From NCBI RefSeq assembly GCF_033153115.1, contig NW_026889779.1, positions 18,228,001-18,292,000 of the forward strand: a stretch of DNA of 64,000 nucleotides. Direction: 5' to 3'. Source of the DNA: Saccostrea echinata. Taxonomy: Eukaryota. This document shows positions 49,495 through 52,400 of the stretch, one piece after another. The first letter of the stretch is position 1; the number at the start of each line of letters is the position of its first letter. The translations under genes were made by a program, and so were the position numbers. The notes beneath the pieces were generated by a model. It was not told where the DNA came from. It searched no databases and saw only the letters and a program-made list of their open reading frames with translations.

Positions 49495-52400
49495 ATGAAA
49501 TATATGGAGATAACGAACAGTATTCAAGCTCAAAAGTCCATTAATCAATACAAAATAGGAGCAGAGCAAACACGGACCTCCAAACATCAGAGGTGGGATC
49601 AGGTGCCATGGAGGAGTGAGCATCCTCTGCCGACCGGTCACACCCGCCGTGTGCTCCTTGTCATGATCGGGAAATAACGGAAAAATCCGTCGACAATTCA
49701 GTGTGTAAATAATGGCCTAACAATTAGTATGAAAAACGTCAGTCAGCATTTGATTCAATGATAAATTGTATTTGCTGACAAGGTCATTGTATTGACCATA
49801 GAACTTACGAAATGATGACTTTAAACGAGACAGCTGATATTCTTGTTTCATCAACTTATTTGTCAATAATTTACCTCGTTTTAGAAATTGTACATACGTA
49901 GAGCATGCTCTTGCGTATCGAATCAACTGAGAGAAATATACCCCGTATGCAGGTGATGAAGGTATATTGCTGCATAAGTAAGGGAAGTTGACGATAGAAA
50001 AGTTAAAGTCATCACGTTTATCATAAAGCTTGGTTGTTAGATTACCATTAACGTCTTTTTCAAGTAAAATATCCAAATATGAAACAGATGTGTCAGACTC
50101 TGTGGTATCTTTTATCTCAAGTTCACAAGGATGTATCGTATCAACATAAGAATGGAAATAGCCATTGTTAATTGACAATACGTCGTCGATATATCTTTAA
50201 ATGTCGAGTTGAAGGCCACAACAAGTGTTTTCTTCTTTTCACGTACAAGATTTTGGACAAATTCTGCTTCATATGAATACAAAAAAAGGTCTGCTAATAA
50301 CGGGGCGCAATTGGTATCCATGGAAATTCCAATAGATTGTAGGAAGACCTGGTCTCCAAAAACCACATAGATATTGTCAATCAGAAACTCAAGCATCTTT
50401 TTAATGTCAACTTCAGAGTACTTGTGTGAACAATCAGAATGTTTTTTAACAAAATAATTTTGCAAATGACCAATGACAAGGTTAGTATATTTACGAGTTC
50501 CATTTTTATTGAAAAAGCAGCTGTCAATGATATCAAAAATCCTGGACTTTGATTTATCGTGGGGAATGGTTGTGTACAAAGTTGAAAAGTCGTAAGTTTT
50601 TAAGCTGTTGATTTTGGTAAAATCTTGTGATTTCAAATTTTCCAAAAGTTCCTTGGAATTTTTAAGTATCCACATCTGATTTACACCACTTCTCGAATAT
50701 ATTGTTGCACAGTACTCTTGAAGTTTCTCCTTCACCACTGTTAATATCTTAGTGAGGAGTAAAGATAGAGGCTTGGTTGAACATTTACTGGAAGCCGCTA
50801 TGTATCTTTCTTTGTAAGGATCTTTATGAAGTTTCGGAATCCAATATAAATATGGTAATTCGAATTCATTTTGGTTGTTTGGAATATTAGAAATATTCAA
50901 AACTGACATATGATTTTGAAGAATTTCTTCCTTAGAAAGGGAACTATGAGTATAAGTTTACCACTTGTAGAATTAAATCCAAGTTCCTCTAAAATACATT
51001 TAACATAATGAGTCTTACAAACAAAGACAATGTTGTTACCTGCTTTGTCAGCAGGGACCAGTACGTACTGATCATGTAATCTATCTAATTCTTTTTTCAC
51101 TTCTGGATTATTGAATACAGAAGGATAGATGGTTTTCATATTGCCTCTCAATCTTTTAATACGCGATTTTAACATACATCTGATACATTTAATCCATTCT
51201 GACAAAGTGTCAAGGTCTTCTTTTTCATGTCTGGTCCATTGCCTGGCGTAGTCCTCTACAGCATCCATAATATTTATGAAATTCCGACACCAGTTGAAGG
51301 ATCTGGGTTCCCTAGATTTAGGACCTTTTAAAATTAGTGATCTAAGGTCCTCATTATTAACTATATTTACGTCACCAGTAATAACGTATCCAGCAGGACT
51401 ATAGTTATAGGGTGAGGAAGAACATGAACACGATGGAGGATTATGCTTCAGATATTCGATATTCAGGCCCTGTAAAGTTTTCTTGTAATTAAAAAGTTTG
51501 GAAGCAATAATCGATGTATATTTGTAGGAAATACAAGGTGGAGTCTTTAACTTGAAATATGGTGGAATAGAAGACTGGACCCTTCTGTGATTAAGAATAT
51601 TATTTATATTAACCGCGTCAATTCCTTTGTTGGCATATTGAAGTTTAAGGAAAAAACGGATTGTTTTAGCTGCATTTTCTTCAGTAAAACGCGGGGGGTT
51701 AAAAAGCCTATGATTGGCAATATCCATAATTACAGATCCGAGCCTATATTCTGGTGTCGAGGAATCAAAAAATGGACTTTCCTTGACCTTTCAAGAAGAC
51801 TATTTAAAAGTTTCAAAGGGACAGAGTAAAGTTTGGTGCGAATATGATGTAGACCTAACTGTTGATTTACGTAAAGTAGTAATGAATCAAAAGAGACATC
51901 GTGTATTAAAGGTTTATTGTAAGACCGATGCCCATGACTACGCTTACGTCTCTGTGTATGGTTAAAAAGTCCCATCACATTTACATTGTTACACTGTGGG
52001 CTAGAAAGATTTCCAACACTATCGAAATAGTCATTACATCCATAGGGAAAGGCTGTCCCTAGCTTTCTTATCCAAAATTCTTGTTGTCTACGGAAAGGTG
52101 TACTCAGTGATGGACTGTTTGTGTGGTGGTAAATCTTTTCCAGAATTCTAACTTTCATTGACAAAATAGAATGATCAGGTAAATTAAAATTTTTGTATAA
52201 AAGTTGCTGACCCCCATTATTTATCTGAAATCTATGACCTGATGTTCTTTTATTGAGTGATCCCTTGGTTTCACCAACATAAACAAGTCCACAAAGATTA
52301 CATTCTATTCCGTAGACAACATTAGAAGATTTGCAGTTCAGATTTTCCCAAGTTTTGGTACAGAAGCTCTGTCCAGTAAGATTACTGGTGAAAGAAGTGT

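Follow-up and report, generated by a model that had tools for sequence, protein, structure and literature searches.

Does a Naiad keep an RNA of its own where other Penelope-like elements (PLEs) keep a hammerhead ribozyme? The question is raised by the pseudo-LTRs (pLTRs) of an element in a 64,000-nt stretch of the Saccostrea echinata genome (hereafter, the window). A model working from the letters alone (the sequence-only reading) recognized a recurrent multi-stem motif there and proposed that it is a conserved, covarying RNA that may serve as a functional substitute for the hammerhead or as a recognition element for the reverse transcriptase (RT). The hammerheads of other PLEs are proposed to cleave as dimers, with palindromes in tandem pLTRs (accessible parts of PMC4209133 and PMC6765202). 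For Naiads, the accessible text of PMC8557442 reports only a failure to find canonical hammerheads, and that of a 2026 preprint mentions these elements only in passing. No description of the motif was found in the open literature, with subscription journals, bioRxiv supplements, and unpublished alignment repositories beyond reach. Here, we describe its fold, its distribution, and the function to which both point.

The host element and its motif copies

The element that carries the motif (Table 1) has an ORF in four frame pieces, which encode, in order, a GIY-YIG domain with a CX2C finger, a CxC motif, a DKA motif, and the RT; the Pfam match to GIY-YIG (E 0.005) falls under the curated cut-off. 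The diagnostic layout of Naiads is an N-terminal GIY-YIG with a CX2C finger, a CxC linker, DKA, and a C-terminal RT (PMC8557442, section 6). With this domain and motif layout and with its partial-tandem pLTRs, the element is a Naiad, as had been proposed, and its 3′ UTR is nearly identical to that of the published Saccostrea glomerata Naiad (accessible part of PMC8557442, File S5).

Table 1. Positions in the window of the Naiad copy, of its motif and the parts of that motif, and of the other motif copies
Feature	Position	Strand	Basis
Naiad copy: 5′ pLTR, four-piece ORF (GIY-YIG, CxC, DKA, RT), 3′ pLTR; frameshifted	49495..53247	-	motifs, pLTR comparison
5′ pLTR	52802..53247	-	pLTR comparison
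3′ pLTR (RT C-terminus and 3′ UTR)	49495..49935	-	96.6% identical to 52802-53247
Whole RNA motif; CGGGUG 70 nt past RT stop codon	49562..49657	-	nhmmer, covariance model, ORF reading
P1 closing stem, 5′ strand; pairs with 49564-49575; top pair R-Y, covaries	49647..49656	-	P4/P1 junction test
Invariant CGGGUG, P2 5′ strand; pairs with CACCUG at 49600-49605	49641..49646	-	100% paired
Palindrome 1, 10 nt; predicted two-molecule duplex	49631..49640	-	covariation, dimer energies, tree test
RCAG (CAG invariant)	49627..49630	-	alignment; 12/12 motif-bearing published consensi
Pseudoknot 5′ strand; AGGAU here, GGGAU in most copies	49622..49626	-	covariation, tree test, allele counts
Invariant GCUYAC; putative cut between 49618 and 49617	49616..49621	-	twister-sister analogy (accessible part of PMC11620745)
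Palindrome 2, CCAUGG; predicted two-molecule duplex	49606..49611	-	palindrome enrichment
Invariant CACCYG, P2 3′ strand	49600..49605	-	alignment
Pseudoknot 3′ strand, AUCCC	49595..49599	-	covariation
P4 hairpin, variable in length and sequence	49576..49594	-	P4/P1 junction test
P1 3′ strand	49564..49575	-	P4/P1 junction test
Motif copy in 5′ pLTR, intact pseudoknot allele	52869..52964	-	covariance model, best score (80.8 bits)
Decayed copy, second family, 3′ of Naiad RT fragment	12592..12685	+	nhmmer, covariance model
Decayed copy, 3′ of Naiad RT C-terminus	20178..20270	+	nhmmer, covariance model
Decayed copy, 3′ of Naiad RT C-terminus	22932..23028	+	nhmmer, covariance model
Old decayed copy, second family	31131..31226	+	nhmmer, covariance model
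Duplicate of the 31131 copy, in segmental duplication	63310..63408	+	nhmmer, covariance model
Partial decayed copy (3′ half)	48688..48768	-	nhmmer

The motif and all eight copies listed by the sequence-only reading are present: nhmmer finds exactly eight in the window, and a covariance model built here recovers the seven full ones with E values from 5e-4 to 3e-19. Genome-wide (923 Mb), the 12-mer CACCTGATCCCA has 18,177 exact matches, against 11 for its reversed control. The window copies are, however, weak evidence of covariation by themselves, because they are mostly decayed members of just two families and two of them (31131 and 63310) derive from one segmental duplication. The same decay marked most copies returned by a search of this genome for divergent families. 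The copy at 49562 differs from most copies by one mismatch in the pseudoknot, an allele with 230 genomic matches against 5,196 for the majority form; the 52869 copy is intact in this respect. Folding z-scores of single window copies are unremarkable (+0.3 to -1.1); single-sequence folding is blind to pseudoknots and dimers.

Other features of the neighborhood include clustered intronless genes that by eye resemble B-box/coiled-coil/NHL proteins, some of them frameshifted (14480-16275, 20368-22240, 27715-29536, 44363-46218, and 59893-61706). Two segments, 27279-31782 and 59447-63995, are duplicates at 94.5%. A piece of an APE-RT LINE, RTE-like by eye, lies at 9144-10994 (-), and a tRNA-like repeat end, likely a SINE head, lies at 27202-27274 (-), scoring 28.2 bits against an Rfam cut-off of 29. 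Within the Naiad itself, the start of the element body bears CTGCTGGTGGAC...TCCCCGAGG (52755-52790, -), a possible promoter, splice, or RNA signal that recurs at the 5′ ends of Naiads from bivalves, hemichordates, corals, and fish (accessible part of the PMC8557442 supplement).

Covariation and the fold of the motif

Wider sampling was obtained with a pattern for the 19-nt invariant core (CGGGUG..CAG..GCUYAC..CACCYG), which matched at least 121 metagenome loci, one viral sequence, and four prokaryote genomes; about three quarters of the metagenome matches listed come from one assembly. Four of the five prokaryote and virus matches lack stems and look like chance; the fifth (L243) is a 407-nt contig with the end of a Naiad RT. 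All told, 177 motif instances (the metagenome part being the matches listed) were clustered into 56 groups. Five of these, GC-rich matches without flanking stems in which only 0-3/5 of the pseudoknot is paired, were left out, and the 51 representatives kept include many decayed copies.

In these representatives, the five nucleotides after CAG and the five after CACCYG are paired in 219 of 255 cells (shuffles: mean 178.7, maximum 199) and form 16 distinct fully paired 5-mer combinations. Further combinations occur in the published consensi whose ends were accessible (GAGGU/GCCUC, GAUGU/ACAUC, GGUAC/GUACC, and AGAGU/ACUCU). Since this 5-bp helix crosses P2, it is a pseudoknot. The sequence-only reading had instead placed the first of these strands in a hairpin, GAGGA/UCCUC, which we reject. 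Its 153 paired cells of 255 lie slightly above the 143.9 of shuffles, but most copies break two of the five positions. In 22 diverse copies picked by hand, 62% of its cells are paired, with covariation no higher than in shuffles. Of its branch changes, 2 of 32 are coupled (p 0.5). In the Saccostrea copies, the five nucleotides pair with the AUCCC that follows CACCUG. That strand is part of CUGAUCCC, a junction that had been called nearly invariant; this is true within the oyster's own genome, but elsewhere the junction varies, with CACCUGAUCCC in 4 of the 51 representatives, and its AUCCC covaries with the pseudoknot partner.

The other supposed inner hairpin, UGACCGGUCG, is a palindrome, worth about 0 kcal/mol as a hairpin against -17 as a dimer. 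Across the representatives, this palindrome 1 is self-complementary in 218 of 255 cells (140.5 when shuffled), and its two central bases covary (AU in 20, UA in 14, CG in 7). Neighboring bases at the center cannot pair with each other in a hairpin, which argues for a duplex of two strands, and computed energies range from -3.9 to -19.8 kcal/mol for the dimer and from 0 to -2.6 for the hairpin. A palindrome of at least 6 nt also precedes CACC (palindrome 2, of 6-8 nt) in 23 of 51 representatives, where 4.7 are expected and flanking controls give 5 and 2 of 51. In both places symmetry is kept and sequence is not: about 20 different words occur, and G.U pairs are tolerated. The palindromes are paired through their centers, as expected of a dimer-activated ribozyme, the dimer itself being a prediction of the model.

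With the pseudoknot and palindrome in place of the two hairpins, 96.9% of cells are paired in the same 22 copies, and the covariation score is 0.555, as opposed to 0.156 in shuffled and at most 0.121 in slid alignments. When the columns under test were left out of tree building, both sides changed on the same branch in 16 of 30 cases for the pseudoknot (null 0.06) and in 28 of 43 for the palindrome (null 0.09). P4 begins directly behind the pseudoknot, and the closing stem resumes directly behind P4, in 17 of 51 representatives (3.0 on average and at most 9 in shuffles), many of the others being decayed or having long inserts. P2 is 100% paired, but five of its six pairs never vary and the sixth shows one G.U to G-C change and no two-sided change. 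An alternative pairing, GGUG/YACY, fits the same data and would bury the proposed cut site. Another, CAGG/CCUG, was set aside, as the CACCCG variant breaks it and yet improves P2.

P1, P4, the 5-bp pseudoknot, and palindrome 1 thus covary, palindrome 2 is enriched, and the helices P1, P2, pseudoknot, and P4 abut with zero linker bases. The closing stem, the CGGGUG/CACCUG stem, and the 3′ hairpin of the sequence-only reading stand after the pairing and junction tests. Its broader idea of a conserved, covarying RNA structure is borne out by the wider sampling, and its two inner hairpins give way to a modeled fold with one pseudoknot and two intermolecular palindromes, in which dimerization is predicted. 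Two families (L137 and L165) have a P4 loop with CACCC, complementary to the invariant GGGUG, a possible switch.

Distribution and the slot shared with other ribozymes

Invariance of the core in the metagenome matches is built into the search pattern; it is an independent observation only in the published Naiad consensi. The ends of 34 of these 54 were accessible (PMC8557442, File S5), and 12 of the 34 bear the motif: two from Clytia, five from bivalves, four hemichordate families, and one from a toadfish. These span four phyla, Cnidaria, Mollusca, Hemichordata, and fish. In all 12, CGGGUG, CAG, GCUYAC, and CACCYG are present with fixed spacing, although six of the 12 were found by position and not by string. 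Two of them, Naiad-1_Chem and Naiad-2_Chem, also share a second conserved GC-rich stretch of ~45 nt, 100-200 nt upstream of the motif.

A Naiad-like protein match accompanies 34 of 126 loci (among the matches listed), mostly in the same orientation and immediately upstream of the motif. Where the end of the ORF could be read (nine loci), the core follows the RT stop at a distance of 15-146 nt on the sense strand; the frame of a tenth locus is broken. The RTs of these ten are 60% identical on average, and their four-fold sites 39%. A core that stays fixed beside synonymous sites so near saturation indicates selection rather than recent descent.

Not all of the loci are Naiads. In L234 (L234:2-350), a single short contig, a complete motif with a long insert in P4 lies about 55 nt past an ORF whose relative is an RT and zinc-finger protein of a non-LTR element with a restriction-like endonuclease (RLE). 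No name was found for this ORF piece in Protein Atlas, and we take the element to be HERO-like. Two further loci are recorded as observations: in L232 (3-146) the motif lies 130 nt past the end of a ubiquitin-hydrolase (UCH) ORF, and in L162 it precedes, on the other strand, a DUF6570 ORF that is presumably Helitron-like.

The other 22 accessible consensi were inspected by eye in the same slot, and hold twister-like motifs in nine cases, hammerhead boxes in nine, and nothing recognizable in four. The twister-like nine come from Mnemiopsis (Naiad_Mley), Clytia (-4_Chem), Morbakka (-1_Movir), three mussels, two clams, and a toadfish (with Mgal, Bpla, Mphi, Scon, Mmer, and Tama completing the consensi). 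By eye, they are type-P5 twisters with covarying T1 and T2 pairings and with a longer and then a shorter palindrome in place of P1; the second palindrome is complementary, in its 5′ half, to the T1 strand, and this could hold the monomer off. Several of the nine with hammerhead boxes have, again by eye, the order site-GAAA-CUGAUGA. This order (type SGC) was noted in Naiad_Amil, Plae, Obim, and Bfor; in the accessible text of PMC10085705, such hammerheads are reported from metatranscriptomes and not from genomes of known organisms. Naiad-1_Chem, which has our motif, also bears an HHR_core flag in the accessible table of PMC8557442, its position not being given there.

The Ptychodera-1, Mytilus, and Acropora Naiads have near-identical 5′ ends and three different folds in the slot. 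Interchangeable ribozymes in one context were the logic behind the discovery of pistol, hatchet, and twister-sister (PMC10085705, as far as accessible), and the slot that the motif shares with twister-like and hammerhead motifs leads us to infer that it is a ribozyme as well. In this sense the proposal of a functional substitute for the hammerhead gains real support from the by-eye assignments in the slot; the fold proposed with it was partly wrong.

Function of the motif

Comparison with known RNA families yielded no membership. To E 10, Rfam has nothing over the motif in the window or in 15 diverse loci, except for an lncRNA match in one locus (L157; E 5.5), which we reject because it scores 17.5 bits where the gathering score is 50. 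The hammerhead boxes CUGANGA and GAAA are found in 0 of 51 representatives. The motif thus differs from the hammerheads of other PLEs in sequence, in being pseudoknotted, and in having two palindromes rather than one; it resembles them in its place near the 3′ end of a pLTR, in belonging to the same superfamily, and in a predicted palindrome pairing between tandem copies. The twister L4 loop (U-T1-AA-T2) is absent from the invariant core; a loose form of its string occurs in 7 of 51 representatives, and Rfam gives no twister match in the window or in the 15 loci. In this genome, the twister-type loop string gave one match against four for the control. Among 246 loci such a string occurs once, in L187, a decayed copy that matches nothing in Rfam, and the 20 of 62 viral matches scanned yielded no twister. 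Like the type-P5 Naiad twisters, as far as the accessible consensi reveal them, the motif occupies the slot in sister families and has an outer closing stem and the longer-then-shorter palindrome module; unlike them, it lacks the L4 loop, the T1/T2 pseudoknots, and the N^AA site, and its invariant bases are wholly different.

HDV-like, pistol, hatchet, and hairpin ribozymes gave no Rfam 15 match to E 10 in the window or in the 15 loci, and their topologies differ from that of the motif. The hallmarks of HDV-like ribozymes, a nested double pseudoknot, P1.1, and a J4/2 strand with a catalytic C, are absent from the motif. Those of R2, RTE, and L1Tc are likewise pseudoknotted RNAs in retrotransposon UTRs, but they are at the 5′ end (accessible part of PMC6765202), and the motif is 3′. 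For SECIS, the alignment has no AUGA/GA kink-turn core, and the accessible supplement attaches no selenoprotein flag to any of the 12 consensi with the motif.

The motif also resembles the active-site loop of twister-sister and twister-sister-like (lantern) ribozymes, in which G7 C8 U9 C10^A11 A12 face G36 C37 N38 A39 G40, with pairs C8-G40 and U9-A39, an extruded N38, and a tolerant C at the cut site (PMC11620745, as far as accessible). GCUYAC agrees with the long L1 strand GCUC^A(A/U) at 5 of 6 positions, and a C to U change at the cut, as in the motif, is tolerated in twister-sister. CAG could supply C37, A39, and G40, with both loop pairs possible, so that the unpaired invariant bases match seven conserved L1 positions in order (C, A, G; G, C, U, A). 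The short strand GCNAG, in contrast, occurs in 0 of 51 representatives (GCAG in 36, ACAG in 9); RCAG is one base shorter, the lacking base being the extruded one, and SL4 and an Rfam match are wanting too. Further, L1 is an internal loop between P1 and P2 in twister-sister, and here both strands flank one 5-nt pseudoknot strand. Given this different topology, the likeness is a lead for a cut at GCUY^AC and not a sign of membership, and a truly shared active site seems doubtful to us.

Taken with the dimeric hammerheads of PLEs, the ribozyme swap in the slot leads us to infer dimer-activated cleavage. The motif is probably a self-cleaving ribozyme, activated by dimerization and outside the catalogued classes; its active site may resemble that of twister-sister, and by this analogy a cut is predicted at GCUY^AC. 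Two motifs, either in both pLTRs of one tandem transcript or in two RNAs, would pair through palindromes 1 and 2. This pairing would relieve a strained monomer and place GCUYAC and the invariant CAG in an active site. Cleavage, most likely at GCUY^AC, would free RNA of one element length from read-through or tandem transcripts, as has been proposed for the dimeric hammerheads of other PLEs. A more specific version, in which it is an undescribed natural class, widespread in animals, that is an obligate dimer through its two palindromes and can be swapped with twisters and rearranged hammerheads, is a real possibility that we do not quite favor.

One contig set and three RNA-seq runs on poly(A) RNA contain abundant RNA derived from the pLTRs, but its ends do not pile up anywhere. 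The libraries are unstranded, and the depth over the element body is 0-4; this null weighs little, given such libraries and coverage and the same null reported for an active PLE hammerhead (accessible part of PMC11167929). According to the same source, the PLE hammerhead needed a protein to cleave and was dispensable for insertion in vitro.

If the ribozyme reading is true, animal retroelements harbor a new ribozyme class whose copies number in the tens of thousands in a single bivalve. Natural self-cleaving RNAs fall into just a dozen or so known classes, the recent additions being mostly bacterial or metatranscriptomic. The view that Naiads do without ribozymes would be overturned, their success without canonical hammerheads (PMC8557442) being explained by another kind of ribozyme. 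The shared two-palindrome module would sense tandem copies, and the role of PLE ribozymes in transposition would become testable; the predicted fold, cut site, and dimer switch can be tested within days.

A noncatalytic RNA signal would account for part of the same evidence. If the Naiad RT or endonuclease bound the pseudoknot, and the palindromes dimerized the template for priming or for the template jumps that build partial tandems, one would understand why, in the nine readable loci, the motif follows the RT stop so closely in the sense orientation; unpaired invariant bases can be protein contacts, and a PLE RT does bind a structured region near the PLE hammerhead (accessible part of PMC11167929). 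However, close Naiad relatives hold unrelated twister-like or hammerhead folds in the slot, and thus an RT can do without this fold. In L234 and L232, moreover, the full motif lies behind an RLE-type ORF and a ubiquitin-hydrolase ORF end, respectively, and L234, a single case, suggests a portable module rather than an RT-specific signal. We consider such a signal unlikely, and the RT-recognition option of the sequence-only reading is weakened by the same facts. The compact, linker-free pseudoknot about 70 nt from the element's 3′ end might alternatively guard the element RNA as an exonuclease block, poly(A) protector, or terminator. Compact pseudoknot folds can indeed stall nucleases, but this role, which we hold to be improbable, leaves unexplained both the two palindromes common to the Naiad twisters and the ribozyme swap in the slot.

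Explanations that do away with a selected RNA fare worse than the dimer-activated ribozyme. That the palindromes act in DNA, as a promoter or protein-binding sites of the pLTR, is highly improbable: their symmetry is conserved while their sequence changes, G.U pairs are tolerated, and the covarying pseudoknot and junction around them are meaningless in duplex DNA. It is nonetheless true that PLE pLTRs have promoters (accessible part of PMC6765202), that dimeric DNA-binding proteins read center-paired palindromes, and that a strand test of G.U against A.C gave 4 vs. 5 and 4 vs. 1. Repeat homology alone, with the structure unselected, would fit the near-zero single-copy z-scores and the decay in the window, but covariation far above shuffled, slid, and tree-aware controls and a core fixed in four phyla and at 39% synonymous-site identity in effect refute it.
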